From a bacterium (GTDB lineage: Bacteria; Zhuqueibacterota; Zhuqueibacteria; Oceanimicrobiales; Oceanimicrobiaceae): a DNA stretch of 64,000 nucleotides. Numbering within the stretch: the stretch's first letter is position 1; the number at the start of each line of letters is the position of its first letter. The notes under the pieces were generated by a model. It saw nothing but the letters and a program-made list of their open reading frames with translations. It ran no database searches and was not told the DNA's origin. The stretch is from NCBI GenBank assembly GCA_046757025.1, contig JBHHXN010000014.1, positions 1,070-65,069 on the forward strand, given 5' to 3'. The position numbers and the translations under genes were made by a program. This document shows positions 6,915-16,685 of this stretch, one piece after another.

Positions 6915-7736
6915 TTTCCGTTCGTTGAATTGTTTTGCGATCTATTTCTTCTCTTTCTTATTTTAGTAAAAGATCCGTTGCGGTTAGCGTAATGCCATGA
7001 GACTCCAATTATGGGCTTTGGACGACTTATTTTGCCGGATAGCAAATATGGCCTGAGTCTTAAATAAGCCTAATAAAAAACAAGATGTAATCTTGATTTT
7101 ATGCTATTGGGCTTACATTGCCAGACGAGGCGAAAAACAGAGAGGCCTCCATACAAGGATATCATGCTCAGTGTCATAAAATCAGACACTTTATGCATAT
7201 TTTACATTAAAAGCTGTGATTTGTATTGATATCCATTATCGACGCCACACAACTTCGTCCAGGAAAAACGCGGAGTGATCTTTGATTTGTATTGATAAAT
7301 TTATAAAAAATCTACAAAATGTCAAGCACTTTCAATGCTTTCTAGTGTACCTGACTGCGAGCTTAACCTGGACTAAAGGCTCCATTCTTCTCTTAAAAAC
7401 AGCCACACATAGCTTGTCATTCAGGAAGAATCTTTTTTGGAATTTGTAAAAACTGTGCTTCAACCAGCCTTTATTTTGTTTACTTAAAAGATCTCGTCAC
7501 TGCGAGATGACGATGCAATTCTCTGACCTGGAGATTGCTGGGCTTGCACTCGCAACAACAAGTCTTGAGTTTTTTTCATTTCGACAGCTTAAGAAGTGAT
7601 TCGCGGAACCGAGTGCGGAATCCTATAATTTTATTATGATGCAATTCTTACAATACGCCTTCCGATCTTTTCCTTGAAAAATAAGATTATTAGCCGTATA
7701 TTTGATGTCAATTTTAGAGGAAGTCAACGTAAACTC

Positions 7737-8936
7737 ATGTGTTCTAAAACCAAACCCGAGCGAATTTATCTCGACCATGCTGCCACCACGCCGGTAGATG
7801 CCAAAGTGGTGCAAGCCATGCTGCCGTATTTTAGCCAGGTGTTCGGCAATGCCTCCAGCATTCATGCTTTTGGCCAGCAGGCCAAAGTCGCTCTTGAAGA
7901 AGCCCGGCGGCAGGTGGCGAAATTGATCAACGCGCAGCCGGCAGAAATCGTGTTTACTTCGGGGGGCACCGAGGCAGACAACTGGGCGATTCAAGGTGCG
8001 GCGGCGCATTTTGCGGGTCACAAAAAGCATATCGTCACCACGGCCGTCGAACATCATGCCGTGCTGTTCGCAGGCAAATATCTAGAAAAAAGAGGCTTTG
8101 AAGTCACCTGTTTGCCGGTAGATAAATTTGGCATGGTAACGCCAGATCAGGTGGCCGACGCCATCCGGGAGGACACCTTTTTAGTCAGTGTGATGCACGC
8201 CAATAATGAAACCGGCAGCCTCAATCCCATAACAGAAATTGGTGCGGTTACTCGCGAGCGTCAGGTTTTGCTGCATACAGATGCGGTGCAAACGGTGGGG
8301 AAAATGCCAGTGGATGTTCATGAATTAAACGTGGACCTGCTGTCCTTTTCCAGCCATAAAATTTACGGACCAAAAGGCATTGGCGCGCTGTATCTGCGCC
8401 GCGGCACTAAAATTGAGAAATTGCTGCACGGCGGCCGGCATGAGCGTGACCGCCGTTCCGGTACAGAAAATGTGCCAGCCGCAGTGGGATTTGGCACAGC
8501 CGCTGAAATTTGTCGAGAAAGGTTAGCTGAAGATATGAATCATTTGTGTCATCTGGGCCGAGAGCTGATTGCGAAAATCACACAGCAGCTTCCTGGGGTG
8601 CGATTGAATGGCCACCCTGAGAAACGTTTGCCCGGTATCGTCAATTTTTCCTTTGCTGGCGTGGAAAGCGATTCATTGATGCTGAGCCTGGATTTAGAGG
8701 GGATTGCCGTCTCCAACGGTTCTGCGTGCAGTTCGGGCTCGGTGGAAGCCTCGCACGTTTTGCAAGCCATGGGGCTGTCCCAGGATTTGAATCGTTCGGC
8801 CATTCGATTCAGCCTGGGCAGAGGCAATACTTCCGAGGACATCGATAGAACGGTTGATGCGCTAACCCGGATCGTGCAGCGATTGCGCGCGTTGAAACCC
8901 GGCAGGAAAAGGGTTGCCGCAGAAGTGCACCCATAA
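7737..8936 (+). CDS. iscS: Cysteine desulfurase (IscS/NifS family)
   Basis: 'RIYLDHAATTPVD', 'SFSSHKIYGPKGIGALYLRRG' (PLP-Lys region) and 'SNGSACSSGS' (active-site Cys loop). Start placed at ATG 7737, which has AGAGGAAG 14 nt upstream. The ORF track's 7674 start adds 21 unlikely residues. Confidence 0.85.
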   Translation: MCSKTKPERIYLDHAATTPVDAKVVQAMLPYFSQVFGNASSIHAFGQQAKVALEEARRQVAKLINAQPAEIVFTSGGTEADNWAIQGAAAHFAGHKKHIVTTAVEHHAVLFAGKYLEKRGFEVTCLPVDKFGMVTPDQVADAIREDTFLVSVMHANNETGSLNPITEIGAVTRERQVLLHTDAVQTVGKMPVDVHELNVDLLSFSSHKIYGPKGIGALYLRRGTKIEKLLHGGRHERDRRSGTENVPAAVGFGTAAEICRERLAEDMNHLCHLGRELIAKITQQLPGVRLNGHPEKRLPGIVNFSFAGVESDSLMLSLDLEGIAVSNGSACSSGSVEASHVLQAMGLSQDLNRSAIRFSLGRGNTSEDIDRTVDALTRIVQRLRALKPGRKRVAAEVHP

Positions 8937-9015
8937 ATTCAATATGACTTGATTGTGAAAAACACTGCAATTCACTTGTGGCTATTATATTAAAAAAGTA
9001 TCGAGCTATTGGCAT

Positions 9016-9035
9016 TTAGCTGTTGGCTTTTGGCC
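9016..9035. repeat. Left inverted repeat 'TTAGCTGTTGGCTTTTGGCC'. Its partner lies at 9469-9512 in inverse orientation.
   Basis: The reverse complement 'GGCCAAAAGCCAACAGC' occurs at 9496-9512. A second partial copy 'GCTAAAAGCCAACAGCTAA' lies at 9469-9487. Together they flank a ~450-bp segment in the iscS-mnmA spacer. Confidence 0.6.
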
Positions 9036-9165
9036 ATTGATGGTGTATTGGTTGCAGACAATGAGAGATTTCAGGACTCTGAATGTTTAGCAAGGTGGGA
9101 TTGCGAGCGTTAAACAAGTTTACCGACTGGCAGAACTTCTCCCTGGTGCAGAAAATTAGCTTAAT

Positions 9166-9198
9166 AAACCTTCCAGGTTTTTAAAACCTGGAAGGTTT
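9166..9198. repeat. 33-bp near-perfect palindrome (AAACCTTCCAGGTTTT-T-AAAACCTGGAAGGTTT): a 16-bp stem hairpin, terminator-like or a protein-binding site
   Basis: The two halves are exact reverse complements. The palindrome sits at the 5' truncation point of the four-helix-bundle gene relic. Confidence 0.6.
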
Positions 9199-9202
9199 AG
9201 AA

Positions 9203-9487
9203 GTCCTGCCGGTTGAGGGAAAACAGGGATTACGATGTCAGATTTGTCGGTCTGCGGTCTCGCAACTTTCAAACATTGCCGAGGGTTGCAGTCGCACCAG
9301 TCAATTAGATTTCAAACGGTTCCTGGAAATGGCTTTAGGTTCGGCATTTGAATTAGAAACTCATTTAATTATCATCGAAGAACTATCTATCATCTCAAAT
9401 GAAGGTATAAAGGTGATTTTGGATCAGTTAAACAAAGAACAAAAGATGATAAATAACCTAATCGGCAAGCTAAAAGCCAACAGCTAA
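9203..9487 (+). pseudogene. 5'-truncated four-helix-bundle protein gene (TIGR02436, the '23S rRNA intervening-sequence protein' family). The first ~35 codons and any start codon are missing.
   Basis: The frame reads '...VLPVEGKQGLRCQICRSAVSQLSNIAEGCSRTSQLDFKRFLEMALGSAFELETHLIIIEELSIISNEGIKVILDQLNKEQKMINNLIGKLKANS*'. This matches the family pattern (FPkeEkyGLtsQlrRAavSIpsNIAEG...AlGSlyElqTqL...). An in-frame stop lies at 9182-9184 and no start codon exists. Confidence 0.65.
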
Positions 9488-9512
9488 CAGCAAACGGCCA
9501 AAAGCCAACAGC
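9469..9512. repeat. Right-hand inverted-repeat block (two tandem partial copies) matching the left repeat at 9016-9035
   Basis: See the left-repeat entry. The block overlaps the last codons and stop of the gene relic. Confidence 0.6.
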
Positions 9513-9571
9513 GGCATAGTTACATCAAAGGGCAGTAGTTAAACAAATGAAATGAATCGAAAATATCCATC

Positions 9572-10702
9572 ATGAACAAGAATAAAAATACCGTCGTCGT
9601 CGCCATGAGCGGCGGAGTGGACAGCAGTGTGGCGGCGGCTTTGCTGCACGAAAGAGGCTATCAGATCATCGGCGTGACCATGAACCTGTGGGATTACGAC
9701 CGGGTGGGCGGCAATGTCAATCGCGACAGCGGCTGCTGCTCTCTCGACACCATGGACGACGCACGGGCGGTCTGTCATACTTTGGGTGTTCCTCATTATG
9801 TGGTTAACTTTCGCAATGAGTTTGAAGCGGCGGTCACCGATAATTTTATTTCCGAATACATGGAAGGCCGCACTCCAAATCCTTGCGTGCGCTGCAACAC
9901 GTACCTCAAGTGGGGAGTGCTGCTGAAAAAAGCGGAGGAATTGGGCGCTGACAAAATTGCTACCGGTCACTATGCGCGTACTTTTTTTGATGAAGAGCGC
10001 GGCCGCTATTTGCTGAAACGCGGCAAAGATATTCACAAGGACCAGTCATACGCGCTGTGGGGAATTCAGCAAAACGGGCTGGCCCGAACCCTTTTCCCGG
10101 TAGGAGAATTTGAGAAGGAAGAAATCCGACAAATCGCCCGCCGTCTGGGTTTGCGCACTGCAGACAAGAAAGAGAGTCAGGAGATTTGTTTTATCCCGGA
10201 TAACGATTACGCGCGCTATCTCCGGAAAAAAGTGCCAAGCCTGCAGCAAAGTCTGGCAGGTGGGGAAATTTATCATGAAAACGGCCAGCGATTGGGAAAG
10301 CATTTTGGCTATCCATTTTACACCATCGGCCAGCGTAAAGGACTGGGCATCGCGGTGGGCAAGCCGGTGTACGTTACGGAAATCGACGCGCCAAACAATC
10401 GCATCAAAGTAGGCAGCAACCGCGACCTGGAGCACGTGGGTTTGATTGCGGAAAATCTCAACTGGATCGCCATTGAGAAGCTCACGCATGAGATGACGGT
10501 AGAAGCCAAAATCCGCTACAACGACCCTGGCGCGCCGGCGCACATTCGGACGATTTCAAACGGTACGGTAGAGGTAAAGTTTGTGCAGCCGCAGAGAGCG
10601 GTGACTCCGGGGCAGTCCGTGGTTTTTTACCAGGACGACGTGGTCATCGGCGGCGGCGTCATCAAATCGTACTTGAAAAATTGGGAGAAATCGCACCAAT
10701 GA
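9572..10702 (+). CDS. mnmA: tRNA-specific 2-thiouridylase (tRNA U34 2-thiolation)
   Basis: The PP-loop '[18 protein letters not shown]' and the full-length MnmA architecture are present. Confidence 0.9.
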
Positions 10703-11534: not shown

Positions 11535-12089
11535 ATGAAGTTGAATCGCATCACCATAACGACGGTAAGTTTGTTTGCGGGTCTGGCGTTCGCCGGCGGC
11601 TACCTTTTTATCGCCATCCCCAATGTGGAAATATTTACCGCCGTGGTGTTTGTAGCGGGGGTTTTATTGGGTGCGCGCAACGGCGCCCTGGTGGGCATCA
11701 TCGCTCAAACGTTTTTTTCGTTGCTGAATCCGTTTGGCATGTCGCTGCCGCCTTTGCTGCTTGCCCAGGTTTTGAACCGCGCCCTGGTGGGTTATGCCGG
11801 CGGCAAGCTGCGGAATTTCTCAGACTTCAGTCAGATGAACTGGAAGAACTGCGCCATGCTGGGATTGACGGGTCTGGTTTTAACCTGGCTTTATGATCTC
11901 ATGGCGTATCTCAGCTTCTTTTTTATTTCGGGGTTTTCAATGGATCAAATGAAAACCACTTTTGCTCTGGGGCTGCCATTTTACCTCATTCACGGTCTGG
12001 TAAATACGGCCATATTTGTGTTGGTACTTCCGCTTTTGATTCGCGGATTACTCAGAATCGAATTCCTTAATACCGCCAGATTGAGTTGA
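11535..12089 (+). CDS. Small polytopic membrane protein, probably an ECF-type S component (substrate-capture subunit). The substrate is unknown and may be a thiamine precursor given the thiD neighbour.
   Basis: 184 aa with ~5-6 hydrophobic helices. A Gly-rich first helix and an overall profile like ECF S components. It lies immediately downstream of thiD. Confidence 0.45.
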   Translation: MKLNRITITTVSLFAGLAFAGGYLFIAIPNVEIFTAVVFVAGVLLGARNGALVGIIAQTFFSLLNPFGMSLPPLLLAQVLNRALVGYAGGKLRNFSDFSQMNWKNCAMLGLTGLVLTWLYDLMAYLSFFFISGFSMDQMKTTFALGLPFYLIHGLVNTAIFVLVLPLLIRGLLRIEFLNTARLS

Positions 12090-13975
12090 AATTGCTTGCC
12101 AAAACGTCCGTTCTTTTGTGGTGTCTTATTTCGTTTCTAATTTTGGTTAATCCACTTGCTTCACAAGAGACCCGCCCCACTGACAGCGATTCAACTTCGC
12201 GTGTAAAATTAGATACCACGCGTAAAATCGCTGCGGATTTTTCAGAACCCTGGCAGGTTCATGCCACGGAAACCGCGGAATTGATCGCCGAAGATGTGGG
12301 CGATTATGTGCAGCTTTTCCCAAACATCCAGTCGCTGGATTTAGGCAGCCTGGGGCAATTTTCACCGCTTTCCTTTCGCGGCGCGTCGCCGCAACAGGCC
12401 GCCATTTTATTCGATGGTTTTGAGTGGGTGGAGCCCATCGGCGGTTTTCTAAACCCCACCAATATACCGATCAACTTAATAGACAATTTGCAATTTCGCG
12501 GCGTCGGTGCCTTTGAGAACACCGGTGTGCTGGGGCCGGCTGGCGTGCTGCAAATCCAGACCTACGATTTCCAATCCGCGCGGCCCTACTCAAAAGTGCT
12601 GTTCCGAGCGGGCGACTGGGGGTACAGCGACCTGGGCGTCATATTTGGCCTGCCCGTCTCCAACAAGTCTCGCTTTGTCATCAGCGGCAACAGGCAGGAG
12701 CTGGACGGTTTCGAAATCAACCGCAAGCACGCAAATTCGCGCATCCTGACCCGGTTCTCAGTGCAGCCGCGGGCAAATTTGAGTTTAATCTACACGGGGT
12801 TTATCAACAAAGACGATGTGAAAGTGCCGGCGCCGCTGGCGCCAGATCTCCTTCCTCGGCTCACGGCTCCCAAACGCAAAGAAAAGCGCTTCGACCAGAT
12901 GCTGCACATCAAATGGGAGGACGGAAACGACAACGGTAAACGATTCGACGGGCGAATCATTTTCTCTAAAATTCGCCAGCGGACGTTTGATGATTCTCTG
13001 TTGTTCAATATCCGAGATCTGACATTGAGCCTCAACGCCCGCTATCAATTAGCGGTTGGCGCGCACACGCTGATTGCCGGCGGGGAAATTCGCCTGGATG
13101 ATTTTGAAAGCTTGAAAATTTCACCGCAGTCGGACCAGAAAGTTAAATTATTTGTACAGGATGCCTTTCAGATTGCGAGTAAAGCGGCTTTGGAATTGCA
13201 GGCACAGGTGGAAAAACACAGCGACCACGCAGCTGTTTTGAACTGGTCGGCGCGGGTAAATTATGGCCTGGCAGAAAACGGCCAGCTCTGGCTGGGCTGG
13301 CAGCAAAGTCGTCGTTATCCCAGCTTTGTGGAACGCTTCTGGCCGACACTGCTTTTTCGCGGCAATCCGGCGCTGGCCGCAGAGAAAGTAATGAACTTCG
13401 AATTGGGTTATCAAATGCAAAATTCGAAAAAGATGGTTTTGCAAGCGTCGGTGTTCGCCCGCCGTACGCGGAATTGGATAACCGCTGCAGCTCTGGATTC
13501 TTCCATCAAATTGTTCAACGCAGTCAATCTGGGCGTGCGCACCCTTGCGGGCATCGAGGCCAAATTTAACTGGAATTTTTACCGTACCGGCAAGTTCGGC
13601 GCCATCGCTTCCTATCTAAAAGTAAAAGAAACCGCGCGTGAAAAGCGTTTACGGGTTCCCGAAATCAACTTTTACAGTTATTTTGAAATCGGCCGTAATT
13701 TTTTTGAGGAGTATGTTTTCATTAAACTGCGGTTGGTGAACCGAATTTACGGCACGCGCTGGGGCCCGTTCTATTCTTTTGGCGCTTCTTTTCCAACTAT
13801 GGCCAAACGAGATCTAAATGTCCTTTTCGATGGGCAGCTCACCTTCCAATTTTCAGACGCCCGACTTTTGATTTCCATGGAAAACATCACGGACGCACGT
13901 TATCAATTGGTGCCGGGCTTTTTCATGCCGCCCAAAACCTTGCGTTTCGGTATAGAGTGGGAATTCTGGGATTGA
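12086..13975 (+). CDS. TonB-dependent-receptor-like outer-membrane protein (plug + β-barrel)
   Basis: Signal peptide present. The plug-like region reads 'LSFRGASPQQAAILFDGFEWVEPIGG'. The barrel has alternating residue pattern and ends in '...RFGIEWEFWD'. Confidence 0.55.
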   Translation: MKLLAKTSVLLWCLISFLILVNPLASQETRPTDSDSTSRVKLDTTRKIAADFSEPWQVHATETAELIAEDVGDYVQLFPNIQSLDLGSLGQFSPLSFRGASPQQAAILFDGFEWVEPIGGFLNPTNIPINLIDNLQFRGVGAFENTGVLGPAGVLQIQTYDFQSARPYSKVLFRAGDWGYSDLGVIFGLPVSNKSRFVISGNRQELDGFEINRKHANSRILTRFSVQPRANLSLIYTGFINKDDVKVPAPLAPDLLPRLTAPKRKEKRFDQMLHIKWEDGNDNGKRFDGRIIFSKIRQRTFDDSLLFNIRDLTLSLNARYQLAVGAHTLIAGGEIRLDDFESLKISPQSDQKVKLFVQDAFQIASKAALELQAQVEKHSDHAAVLNWSARVNYGLAENGQLWLGWQQSRRYPSFVERFWPTLLFRGNPALAAEKVMNFELGYQMQNSKKMVLQASVFARRTRNWITAAALDSSIKLFNAVNLGVRTLAGIEAKFNWNFYRTGKFGAIASYLKVKETAREKRLRVPEINFYSYFEIGRNFFEEYVFIKLRLVNRIYGTRWGPFYSFGASFPTMAKRDLNVLFDGQLTFQFSDARLLISMENITDARYQLVPGFFMPPKTLRFGIEWEFWD

Positions 13976-14056: not shown

Positions 14057-14079
14057 GCGCTAATCAATTAAACAATACA

Positions 14080-14300
14080 CGGGTAATTCCAAGAAATTGG
14101 GAGATAGGAAGCCGGTGAGAATCCGGCGCTGCCCCGCAACTGTAAGCAGCTACGAACGCTTGAAGCGCCACTGTTCTGCAGGCATCACGAGATGACGAAA
14201 AAAGTCAGAATGGGAAGGCAAAGCAAGTAGGAATGAAGCTGTAAGCCAGGAGACCTGCTCGTGGAATCTTTCGAGGGAAAGGCTGAGCATGTGCAAAGAT
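14080..14300 (+). promoter_or_regulatory. Cobalamin (AdoCbl) riboswitch aptamer
   Basis: 'GGAAGCCGGTGAGAATCCGGCGCTGCCCCGCAACTGTAA' matches the conserved cobalamin-riboswitch core. The B12 box 'GTAAGCCAGGAGACCTGC' lies at 14241-14258. 'GCCACTG' is present. Confidence 0.75.
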
Positions 14301-14513: not shown

Positions 14514-16685
14514 ATGGATAATCCAAAACGACTTGTCGCACTGATTTTTCTGTTGTTCATGGTTCCGATTGCCGGCCATGCCCAAAATGGGACTTTTTCA
14601 GGTTATGTTCGCGATCAATATTCACAGGAGCCGCTGCCGGACGTCAACATTGTGCTGGTCGGCACCCCCTATGGCGCCTCATCCAACAACGCGGGTTATT
14701 TTGAAATAAAAGCCCTGCCAGTTGGAAAATACCTCATTCAAGTCAGCAGAATTGGGTATGCCACCCTGCAGCAAGAAGTGGTTATCAAGCCCGATCAGGG
14801 CAACCGGCAGAATTTTCAATTGCGAGCACAGGCGGTTTTGTTCAACGAAGTTCTGGTTACCGCCACCCGAGAGAAGGCGTTAAATTCGGAAGTTTCGGTG
14901 GCCACGGATATTATCCCGCGATCTGAAATTGACCGGAGTGCTTCGCAAAACATCGGGGAAATTTTGGAGAGCTTGAGTCATGTGTTTGTCAAAAACTACG
15001 GCAACCTCGGGGCTTTAAAAACCGTGACCATGCGCGGTGCCAGCGAAAATCAGGTGCTGATATTGCTCGATGGACAAAGGCTAAACCTGGCGCAGGGCAT
15101 TGCGCCGGATCTGAGCGACATTCCCGTGCACGCCATCGAACGCATCGAAGTCACGCGTGGCGGCAATTCCGCGCTTTATGGCACCGACGCCATCGGCGGG
15201 GTGATCAATTTGATCACCCGCGGGCGCTTCAACCAAAAAGCCGTGAACGGAGGTTTCAATTCTACCATCGGCTCTTTTGGAACCCGCATTGTTTCGGCCA
15301 ATTTTGGCCAGACCCTGGGTGCGTTTAACTATTTTGTTGCTCACGAATATGCCGAAAGCGACGGCGACTTTCGATTTGAGAATGACAATTCAGAAAAAGT
15401 CAAACGCAGCAACAACAACCTCAAGTGGAACGACACGTTCGTAAAACTCAATTACTCACTTAACCCATCCACCTATTTCAGTGGCTATTTGCAGCTCCAC
15501 GACGCCGACCGCGGCGTGCCCGGGCCGTTGAGTTTTCCTTCAGAAAGCGCCACGCAAAAAGACAACTCAAAGAAATTCAATTTTAAATTTGACAAATATT
15601 TTTCCACCGGTTTAAATTTACAAGTGCAGACTTTCTTTTATCACACCATACAAAATTTTGACGATTCATCGGCTTTTTTCCCCATTCATAGTCTGCACAA
15701 AAATGACGCCTTTGGCTTCAGTTTGCAATCCAATTGGCGGCAGACCAAATTCAGCGAGTTCACCGGAGGCGTGGAATATCGGCAGGATAAAATCAACAGC
15801 ACCGATGTGGCCAAACAAAAGCAAACCATCGGCAGCGCGTTTGTGCAGAATGAGTTTAAGTTCCCTCTGGAGAACCTGTGGTCGCACAGCCACTTGAGTT
15901 TGGTGCCCGCTTTTCGAGTGGACAAAGTCACCGGCGAGGAAGCTCAGTGGAGTCCGAAATTCGGGTTTCATTTCAGTCATGCTTCCAATTATCAATTTAT
16001 CGTTCGCGGGAATTGGGGGCGATCTTTCCGGGTGCCGTCTTTTAACGATCTCCACTGGCCGGCTGGTTCGTTTACCGCGGGCAACCCCGATCTGGTTCCG
16101 GAGGAAGGCACAAGCTATGATTTCGGAATGATGCTGAATTTTCAAAAGGCTGCGTACTGGGGGTTCGAAATCAGCTTTTTTCAAACGCAGCTGGATAATT
16201 TGATTTTATGGGGTCCGCGGGCAGATGGCGTCTGGAGTCCGGATAACCTACAAAAAGCCAGTATCCGCGGATTGGAATTGAAATTCACCGTCCGGGATCT
16301 GGGCCGCTTCTTCAATCTCGTTGTTCGACACAATTACCTCCGCGCCGTGGACAACAGCGAGGATTCCAGTTTGAACGGCAGAACCCTGGTGTATCGACCG
16401 TCACATAAACTGGATCTCACGGCCGATTTTGATTTTGAATTCGTGACGTTTAATTGGATCTATCAGTATGTGGGCAAAAGATTCACTGCTCCGGACAACA
16501 GCACCTCTTTGACGGCGTATCATTTAAACCATCTTAGTCTGGTGAGGAGGCAATCCTTGTGGGGCGGGACGTTGAAAATCAGCGGGGAAATTCGCAACCT
16601 GTTTGATGATGAGCAGGTACAGGTCATCGCCGGATTTCCTATTTCCGGTCGGGAGTATCGAACGGTTCTGGGGTTTGAATTCTGA
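14514..16685 (+). CDS. TonB-dependent receptor, SusC/BtuB-like (CarboxypepD_reg-like N-domain + plug + 22-strand barrel). Probable cobalamin/corrinoid receptor.
   Basis: Signal peptide present. The 'GYVRD...PLPDVNIVLVG...GYFEIKALPVGKYLIQVSRIGY' N-domain, a plug ('TMRGASENQVLILLDGQRLN') and a C-terminal '...VLGFEF' are all present. Preceded by the cobalamin riboswitch. Confidence 0.8.
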   Translation: MDNPKRLVALIFLLFMVPIAGHAQNGTFSGYVRDQYSQEPLPDVNIVLVGTPYGASSNNAGYFEIKALPVGKYLIQVSRIGYATLQQEVVIKPDQGNRQNFQLRAQAVLFNEVLVTATREKALNSEVSVATDIIPRSEIDRSASQNIGEILESLSHVFVKNYGNLGALKTVTMRGASENQVLILLDGQRLNLAQGIAPDLSDIPVHAIERIEVTRGGNSALYGTDAIGGVINLITRGRFNQKAVNGGFNSTIGSFGTRIVSANFGQTLGAFNYFVAHEYAESDGDFRFENDNSEKVKRSNNNLKWNDTFVKLNYSLNPSTYFSGYLQLHDADRGVPGPLSFPSESATQKDNSKKFNFKFDKYFSTGLNLQVQTFFYHTIQNFDDSSAFFPIHSLHKNDAFGFSLQSNWRQTKFSEFTGGVEYRQDKINSTDVAKQKQTIGSAFVQNEFKFPLENLWSHSHLSLVPAFRVDKVTGEEAQWSPKFGFHFSHASNYQFIVRGNWGRSFRVPSFNDLHWPAGSFTAGNPDLVPEEGTSYDFGMMLNFQKAAYWGFEISFFQTQLDNLILWGPRADGVWSPDNLQKASIRGLELKFTVRDLGRFFNLVVRHNYLRAVDNSEDSSLNGRTLVYRPSHKLDLTADFDFEFVTFNWIYQYVGKRFTAPDNSTSLTAYHLNHLSLVRRQSLWGGTLKISGEIRNLFDDEQVQVIAGFPISGREYRTVLGFEF

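Follow-up and report, generated by a model that had tools for sequence, protein, structure and literature searches.

The intervening sequences (IVS) of 23S ribosomal RNA (rRNA) that carry an open reading frame (ORF), described from Leptospira, Coxiella burnetii, Xanthomonas and Brucella, encode a protein named S23p (PMC4990558). These elements have complementary borders that form a stem, are transcribed within the host RNA, and are excised by RNase III; they are regarded as selfish and horizontally acquired, and their ORF is often unexpressed or decaying (PMC4990558). XCC0516 of Xanthomonas campestris is a homopentamer of four-helix bundles (PMC4990558), and Pfam places in the same superfamily the Avd proteins of diversity-generating retroelements, which are basic four-helix-bundle pentamers (PMC10053308, where PF05635 is mentioned). 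The subject of this work is a gene of this four-helix-bundle family (PF05635/TIGR02436) located between iscS and mnmA in a stretch of 64,000 nucleotides of the bacterial contig JBHHXN010000014.1 (GenBank assembly GCA_046757025.1), the whole of which is referred to here as the window. The gene is complete but dead and is enclosed by inverted arrays of a degenerate heptamer. Together with these arrays (window positions 9005-9512), it is probably a dead copy of a selfish cassette, similar to an intervening sequence, that is carried along in the transcripts of operons.

The STRR sequences of cyanobacteria are intergenic tandem repeats of heptamers. Intergenic tandem repeats of the heptamer TAACTGA are found in Beggiatoaceae, cyanobacteria, and Bacteroidetes (PMC4679880), and in the text of that paper "S23", "helix bundle", "intervening" and "IVS" do not occur. 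The protein family, its occurrence in rRNA IVS, its scattered distribution, and intergenic heptamer repeats are already known. The packaging of the family in heptamer arrays, which is consistent and widespread, appears to be undescribed in the open-access literature, where no paper was found that links inverted heptamer arrays to this family or describes its co-oriented placement inside operons.

A complete but inactivated four-helix-bundle gene

The spacer between the stop codon of iscS (8936) and the start of mnmA (9572), both on the plus strand, measures 635 bp, as stated in a preliminary description of this locus that was made from the DNA letters alone. Its 3' two-thirds match PF05635 at 80.7 bits (cut-off 33.8) and TIGR02436 at 86.8 bits (cut-off 24), confirming the relic of a TIGR02436/PF05635 gene that had been recognized there. 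The same description held that the first helix and any start codon were missing, which turned out to be incorrect. An ATG at 9061-9063 opens 28 codons, MRDFRTLNV*QGGIASVKQVYRLAELLP, corresponding to helix 1 of the family in a frame other than that of the 3' part (the three-frame translation from this ATG reads MRDFRTLNV*QGGIASVKQVYRLAELLPGAEN). As delimited by profile match and alignment, the pseudogene consists of a 5' part with codons 1-28 (9061-9144, plus strand), which is 85-87% identical in DNA to the copies at the homologous loci L093 and L092, and a 3' part with codons 29-120 (9212-9487, plus strand), which ends with a TAA at 9485-9487. Once joined, both parts give 120 residues that cover positions 1-109 of the 109 of TIGR02436 (101.4 bits, cut-off 24, E 3e-29) and positions 2-106 of the 106 of PF05635 (97 bits, cut-off 33.8, E 9e-28). 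All 120 codons, from the ATG at 9061 to the TAA at 9487, are kept, in two reading frames.

Alignment of the DNA with four homologues, L091 with an in-frame stop and three intact copies, reveals a 67-bp insertion at 9145-9211 as the sole length difference, with no gene sequence lost. Three kinds of change inactivate the gene. The first is a nonsense codon, TAG instead of TGG at 9088-9090 (plus strand), in place of Trp10, a residue that is invariant across 30 homologues; the second is the 67-bp insertion itself, which causes a +1 frameshift; and the third is a set of several replacements at conserved residues. Of the 67 columns conserved to 90% or more, the window copy departs from the family in 6 and most homologues in 0-3; the departures of the window copy include Ile-to-Gln and Pro-to-Leu within the VSIPSNIAEG motif. 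Because the family model is covered in full, no gene sequence is lost, and a stop and a frameshift interrupt the frame, the gene is complete but dead, a pseudogene of the family that has no intact translatable frame and is not truncated at its 5' end. Such decay recurs at other loci, with in-frame stops splitting the gene in L091 (2612-2614), L120 (~2597-2599), and L140 (~302-304).

The NCBI annotation of this region contains only a 93-residue "four helix bundle protein" (P0008, window 9206-9487) beginning with MPVEG. Its start must be a CTG at ~9206, and the annotated protein is the 3' fragment of the pseudogene and ought to be flagged accordingly. Searches of PADLOC and PHROGs gave no match to the protein at E < 0.01, so that a role in defence or in phages has no support.

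Inverted heptamer arrays at the borders of the cassette

Inverted repeats had been reported on either side of the relic, the right one being repeated, and both observations hold. Positions 9009-9034 pair with 9469-9494 over 26 nt at 85%, and 9019-9038 with 9493-9512 over 20 nt at 95%, the right side being a tandem triplicate of a 14-nt unit. These inverted repeats are arrays of the degenerate heptamer GCYAAHR, in reverse orientation upstream of the gene and in forward orientation at its 3' end and downstream. The left arm (9005-9038) is an array of 4-5 units TRTTRGC, the reverse complement of GCYAAHR, and it is here that homology to L092 (88%) and L091 (85%) begins. A short leader (9039-9060, plus strand), conserved in the closest copies and 77% identical to that of L092, connects it to the start codon. 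The right arm (9469-9512) holds six units GCYAAHR, namely GCTAAAA, GCCAACA, GCTAACA, GCAAACG, GCCAAAA, and GCCAACA, the first of which supply the stop codon and the codons for the conserved C-terminal residues KLKANS.

Over array, leader, and coding sequence, the DNA similarity to the closest copies L092 and L093 amounts to 82-88%. By inspection of the alignments, this similarity stops at the outer edges of the arrays, which sets the limits of the cassette at ~9005-9512. The 16-mer GCCAAAAGCCAACAGC, with at most 3 mismatches allowed, is found five times in the 64-kb window, always at this site; 0.92 occurrences are expected, and five were reached in none of 100 shuffles. The cassette thus carries terminal inverted repeats, as do miniature inverted-repeat transposable elements (MITE) and terminal-inverted-repeat (TIR) transposons. 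The same repeats are present outside this site, around relatives of the gene at dozens of unrelated loci, and for this reason they can be assigned to the element, in agreement with the preliminary description.

Array packaging across the gene family

Homologous loci were collected from metagenomes via protein relatives (80 loci) and through exact-protein look-ups, and 77 distinct loci were counted. Nearly all the loci fetched share the array-gene-array layout. Within 150 nt upstream of the gene, reverse heptamers reach a density of 15.7 per kb, and forward heptamers one of 18.9 per kb at its 3' end and downstream, against a background of ~1 per kb at more than 400 nt and of 0.1-0.5 per kb in the gene body, an enrichment of ~17-fold. 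Aligned in phase, the units give the consensus G-C-Y-A-A-H-R; their number, with a median of 4-5 on each side, ranges from 3 to 24. A strict array of at least 3 units lies within 250 nt of the gene at 51 of the 77 loci. In a 930-kb control, made up of the window and 80 mnmA-centred loci of related phyla, only one array and only one four-helix-bundle gene were found, both at the window site.

The array also leaves its mark on the coding sequence. In the last 10 codons, usage leans towards the heptamer, with CTA accounting for 43% of Leu codons (9% in the gene body), AGC for 50% of Ser (13%), and GCC for 40% of Ala (10%), which implies a constraint on the nucleotide sequence of the array. As read directly from the letters, the units GCTAANN and NNTTAGC contain TAA and TAG, and since the period is 7, stops fall in all three frames within an array.

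Some loci deviate from the simplest layout. In L163 (800-1440), arrays of ~18 units, roughly 125 bp, lie on either side of the gene, and the same locus has a gene-less hairpin of reverse plus forward arrays (2223-2346) 3' of a LytTR regulator gene. L110 carries two four-helix-bundle genes (194-595 and 2471-2860), 2 kb apart on the same strand, and in L093 a further inverted repeat, perfect over 29 bp, lies outside the others.

Placement inside operons

The longest neighbouring ORF is co-oriented with the cassette gene at 65 of 68 loci upstream and at all 65 loci downstream. The upstream stop codon and the start codon of the cassette gene are separated by a median of 65 nt, most of which is array, and this leaves a promoter or terminator no room. 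Intact copies packaged in this way occur in operons of many bacteria that are not related to one another, and the host genes are of many kinds. In L163, the cassette lies between a LytS-like kinase gene and that of its LytTR regulator, and in L085 and L088 between unrelated metabolic genes. In L112 (896-1486), it is found between a SAM riboswitch and the start codon of metH. In L115 (1235-2912), it separates two metH frames, the first of which has its stop codon within the array; this locus is related to L112, yet its leader is empty.

A second small-gene family with repeat packaging was observed on the same contig as one of these four-helix-bundle cassettes. At 4733-5266 of L085, a small PDDEXK_3 gene (PF13366) has direct copies of ATCAGTGTTCCATCCGTGTCGATCAGTGGCT on both sides and an inverted partner upstream.

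Insertion at the iscS-mnmA junction

The gene order PEMT-iscS-x-mnmA-y-thiD-ECF_S-TonB is kept in relatives at 75-80% MnmA identity. Neither a four-helix-bundle gene nor arrays were found at the iscS-mnmA junction in six relatives of the same synteny. The spacer is 9 bp long in L004 and 91 bp in L172, and the junction is occupied in L003, L174, and L171 by a toxin-antitoxin pair, DUF4258/DUF2283, or its remains. The comparison of this junction among relatives that the preliminary description proposed speaks for insertion, no relative having an intact four-helix-bundle gene there. The protein collection contains no relative at 80-100% identity, and for this reason the age of the insertion is not narrowed further.

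The copies most similar to the cassette, at 77-82% protein identity and ~85% DNA identity, are located in unrelated contexts, following an alpha-amylase-like gene or a gene for 451 residues, or on short contigs. The G+C content of the cassette is 41.5%, compared with 53% in iscS, mnmA, and thiD, a difference that is weak evidence on its own because G+C is heterogeneous across the whole window. Logan contigs of the same organism, with 1-3 mismatches in 4722 nt, begin at 9430, within the conserved 3' end of the gene, and most of the closest homologues are on contigs of 0.5-1.2 kb. Both the breaks and the short contigs hint at a repeated element, for which such a pattern would be expected.

An old, vertically inherited resident gene that decayed in situ, with no mobility involved, is a very unlikely explanation for the window copy. 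In other clades, the cassette stays at one site across diverged relatives, as upstream of hemE at several loci, and L095, L100, L109, and L119 have one common context, so that long residence is possible. At iscS-mnmA, however, the cassette is present in 0 of the 6 same-synteny relatives, the nearest copies have different contexts, and the G+C content of the cassette is 12 points under that of the flanking genes. Insertion of a mobile cassette remains the preferred reading for this junction.

Both sides of mnmA accommodate other small genes in the relatives. Co-oriented DUF4258/DUF2283, retropepsin-like Asp_protease, HicB, PIN, and unnamed ORFs are found there (L003 4831-5275, L174 1979-2424, L171 1916-2479, and L172 3659-4215), which makes the mnmA operon a site at which small accessory genes have repeatedly landed. 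Upstream of mnmA, L172 (2410-2500) and L005 (1-130) have a gene-less hairpin of inverted CACGAAT/CACGAAG repeats, a family other than GCYAAHR and perhaps the emptied remnant of a different type of cassette.

The 67-bp insertion and its palindrome

The insertion at 9145-9211 (plus strand), whose placement is ambiguous by ~12 bp, contains a perfect palindrome at 9165-9199 with 17-nt arms (9165-9181 and 9183-9199) and a 1-nt centre. The hairpin has an energy of -23.9 kcal/mol, brought to -46 kcal/mol by an imperfect outer stem of 9126-9140 with 9198-9212 (13/15). The palindrome interrupts the gene and does not truncate it, contrary to what had been described before, since it lies within an insertion in a gene that is otherwise complete. 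Nor is there any sign that it is itself mobile: it occurs only once in the window, chance matches with 3 mismatches aside, and is absent from 170 of the loci fetched and from a viral collection.

According to the preliminary description, helix 1 and the start were lost at the palindrome, and the remnant now serves as iscS terminator and mnmA leader. The strong hairpin does lie 230 nt past the iscS stop codon, and the frame annotated by NCBI (P0008) opens just past it. However, the truncation is refuted by helix 1 and the ATG at 9061-9144. The stem lacks a U-tract (the sequence 3' of it is GAAGUCCUG), and a terminator scan gave no site at 9165-9199. The only terminator-like site in the region is on the minus strand, in the right array (9507-9495), one being found where 1.0 is expected by chance. 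Moreover, mnmA lies downstream in the same orientation, 9 bp from iscS in a relative, and a full terminator here would therefore cut it off from its operon. A truncated remnant acting as terminator and leader is, all considered, highly improbable.

The borders of the insertion resemble each other, which brings up the possibility that two paralogous cassettes are fused in the pseudogene, or that it carries a repair patch from a second copy, with the join at the palindrome. Positions 9133-9156 and 9200-9223 show an imperfect direct similarity (15/24 bases, shuffle P ~0.009), and the same protein stretch is encoded to the left (ELLPGAEN) and to the right (EVLPVEGK) of the palindrome, the family consensus being EFLPVEEK. 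Many of the differences between these stretches are at third codon positions, whereas the palindrome arms are 17/17 identical. Against such an origin, the copies nearest to the 5' part are also those nearest to the 3' part, at comparable identity (for L092, 87% and 82-88%), the alignment requires no loss of gene sequence, and the similarity is short and was spotted post hoc. A fusion or patch is thus considered unlikely, and the insertion into a complete copy is kept as the description of this site. A derivation of the insert from the gene itself was looked for by local alignment of a stretch offset by 9 bp, which gave only the outer inverted match 9126-9140/9198-9212.

Proposed carriage of the cassette in operon transcripts

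The proposed history of the locus begins with a cassette that would have landed, co-oriented, between the normally adjacent genes iscS and mnmA. Having no room for a promoter or terminator of its own, a live cassette would be transcribed by read-through within the host operon, and we infer that it is co-transcribed with the operon genes. The two arrays would then pair and close the ORF into a long stem, while also putting stops in the three frames. With its arms folding it out of the transcript, the cassette could be tolerated in operons, both between cistrons and in 5' leaders, and would do little harm there. By analogy with the IVS of 23S rRNA, the folded cassette might be processed by RNase III.

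The pairing of the arms in RNA is a thermodynamic prediction. For window positions 8990-9530, both the minimum-energy and the centroid fold are predicted to pair 9019-9035 with 9496-9512 (z = -6.0), and the arm duplex is predicted at -40.8 kcal/mol. Across the family, predicted folds have at least 10 long-range closing pairs at 59 of 71 loci, with a median of 31, compared with 27 of 71 and a median of 8 when the upstream flank is shuffled.

Several points weigh against a cassette maintained in operon transcripts. On the sense strand, G:U mismatches within the arms do not outnumber A:C mismatches (106 vs 135), and a strand-specific sign of selection for an RNA stem is thus absent. Arms of the same locus pair barely better than arms of different loci (-40.0 vs -35.9 kcal/mol), and arm complementarity may follow simply from both arms being arrays of one motif. 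The 64-kb window holds no second copy of the cassette. The exact ends and a target-site duplication are not definable by comparison with the empty-site relatives, because these are too diverged (~75% protein identity). The palindrome insertion has no explanation in this scheme, and both co-transcription and processing are steps that we infer.

The balance of G:U and A:C mismatches is what would be expected if the arrays acted on the DNA level, as terminal or subterminal binding sites used by a recombinase in trans or by the four-helix-bundle protein itself to move the cassette, the RNA stem being a by-product. The strict orientation rule, reverse upstream and forward downstream, combined with a unit number that varies from 3 to 24, also fits this alternative, as do the gene-less array hairpins (L163 2223-2346 and the flanks in L083), which resemble non-autonomous elements, and the extra perfect 29-bp outer inverted repeat of the closest copy L093. 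On the other hand, Pfam scans of large ORFs in 1-22 kb of the window detected no transposase, integrase, or reverse transcriptase within ~10 kb, and no target-site duplication was identified against empty-site relatives at ~75% protein identity. A DNA-level role is compatible with the near-absolute co-orientation and the lack of space for a promoter or terminator, but does not explain them. It is regarded as a serious rival, though as rather unlikely, and carriage within operon transcripts as the better account of the cassette.

Host genes and neighbourhood

The upstream host gene encodes an iscS-like cysteine desulfurase (Aminotran_5) and extends over 7737-8936 on the plus strand. Its mechanical ORF opens at a TTG at 7674, and the later ATG at 7737 agrees with the starts in relatives. 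Downstream, mnmA (tRNA 2-thiouridylase) occupies 9572-10702 on the plus strand and overlaps thiD by 4 bp, as previously described and as found in gene calls on contigs of the same organism. Between the right array and mnmA lies the rest of the mnmA leader (9513-9571, plus strand), with ATAGTTAC at 9516-9523, a motif that two of the closest copies, L091 and L093, also have immediately beyond their right arrays.

Rfam identified no rRNA in the window or in 20 related loci. Its only hit in the window was a cobalamin riboswitch (92.5 bits, 14064-14276), located between the TonB-dependent receptor genes at 12086-13975 and 14514-16685; at 14151, inside the riboswitch, Logan contigs of the same organism come to an end. 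At a relaxed threshold, Rfam gave nothing in 8900-9620 beyond chance matches to microRNA hairpins at E 0.35.

Comparison with known systems

The window copy itself is an ordinary pseudogene, yet it exposes the packaging of a very common family of "hypothetical" genes. If the cassette does ride in operon transcripts, this would explain its scatter among housekeeping genes, the assembly breaks, and the annotation of fragments. The arrays and the co-orientation rule could be used for the automatic annotation of elements and of their decayed copies, and the arrays, the solo hairpins, and the insertions between a riboswitch and its gene offer testable handles on the function of the four-helix-bundle protein.

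The only solved structure matched by the protein is that of XCC0516 from X. campestris (PDB 2gsc; E 7.7e-15, residues 3-97), which is a distant homologue of the window protein. Unlike Avd, the cassette has no reverse transcriptase and no pair of template and variable repeats near it, and its neighbours are iscS and mnmA. An integron gene cassette was also considered and ruled out, given that TGTTGGC and TGTTAGC do not fit, by inspection, the attC core GTTRRRY and that there is no integrase nearby; a single cassette within a housekeeping operon disfavours it as well.

Regarding the arrays, the closest parallels are the TAACTGA and STRR repeats. Like these, the arrays have a 7-nt period, are intergenic, keep a fixed orientation to the adjacent gene, vary in copy number, and coincide with assembly breaks. 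They differ from them in their unit, GCYAAHR, and in forming an inverted pair around one gene family.

As for the element as a whole, the best comparison is with the IVS of 23S rRNA. The IVS are inserted in helix 9, 25 or 45 of the rRNA, whereas the cassette sits between protein-coding genes of an operon, here iscS and mnmA, and not in a helix of 23S or 16S rRNA. In addition, the arms of the IVS are a unique inverted repeat, and those of the cassette are tandem arrays of a degenerate heptamer. Common to both are a PF05635 protein, an element of ~430-500 nt, and complementary borders enclosing the ORF, which in the predicted folds of the cassette form a closing stem, as in rRNA IVS. A broader proposal, speculative and doubtful at present, is that four-helix-bundle genes in inverted GCYAAHR arrays constitute widespread, undescribed "messenger-RNA intervening sequences". 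These would be mobile in operon transcripts and 5' leaders, with arms processed like those of rRNA IVS and with an Avd-related protein that would bind the excised RNA or the arrays for maintenance or spread, possibly assisted by a reverse transcriptase in trans; the IVS of 23S rRNA would then represent a special case of this larger group.

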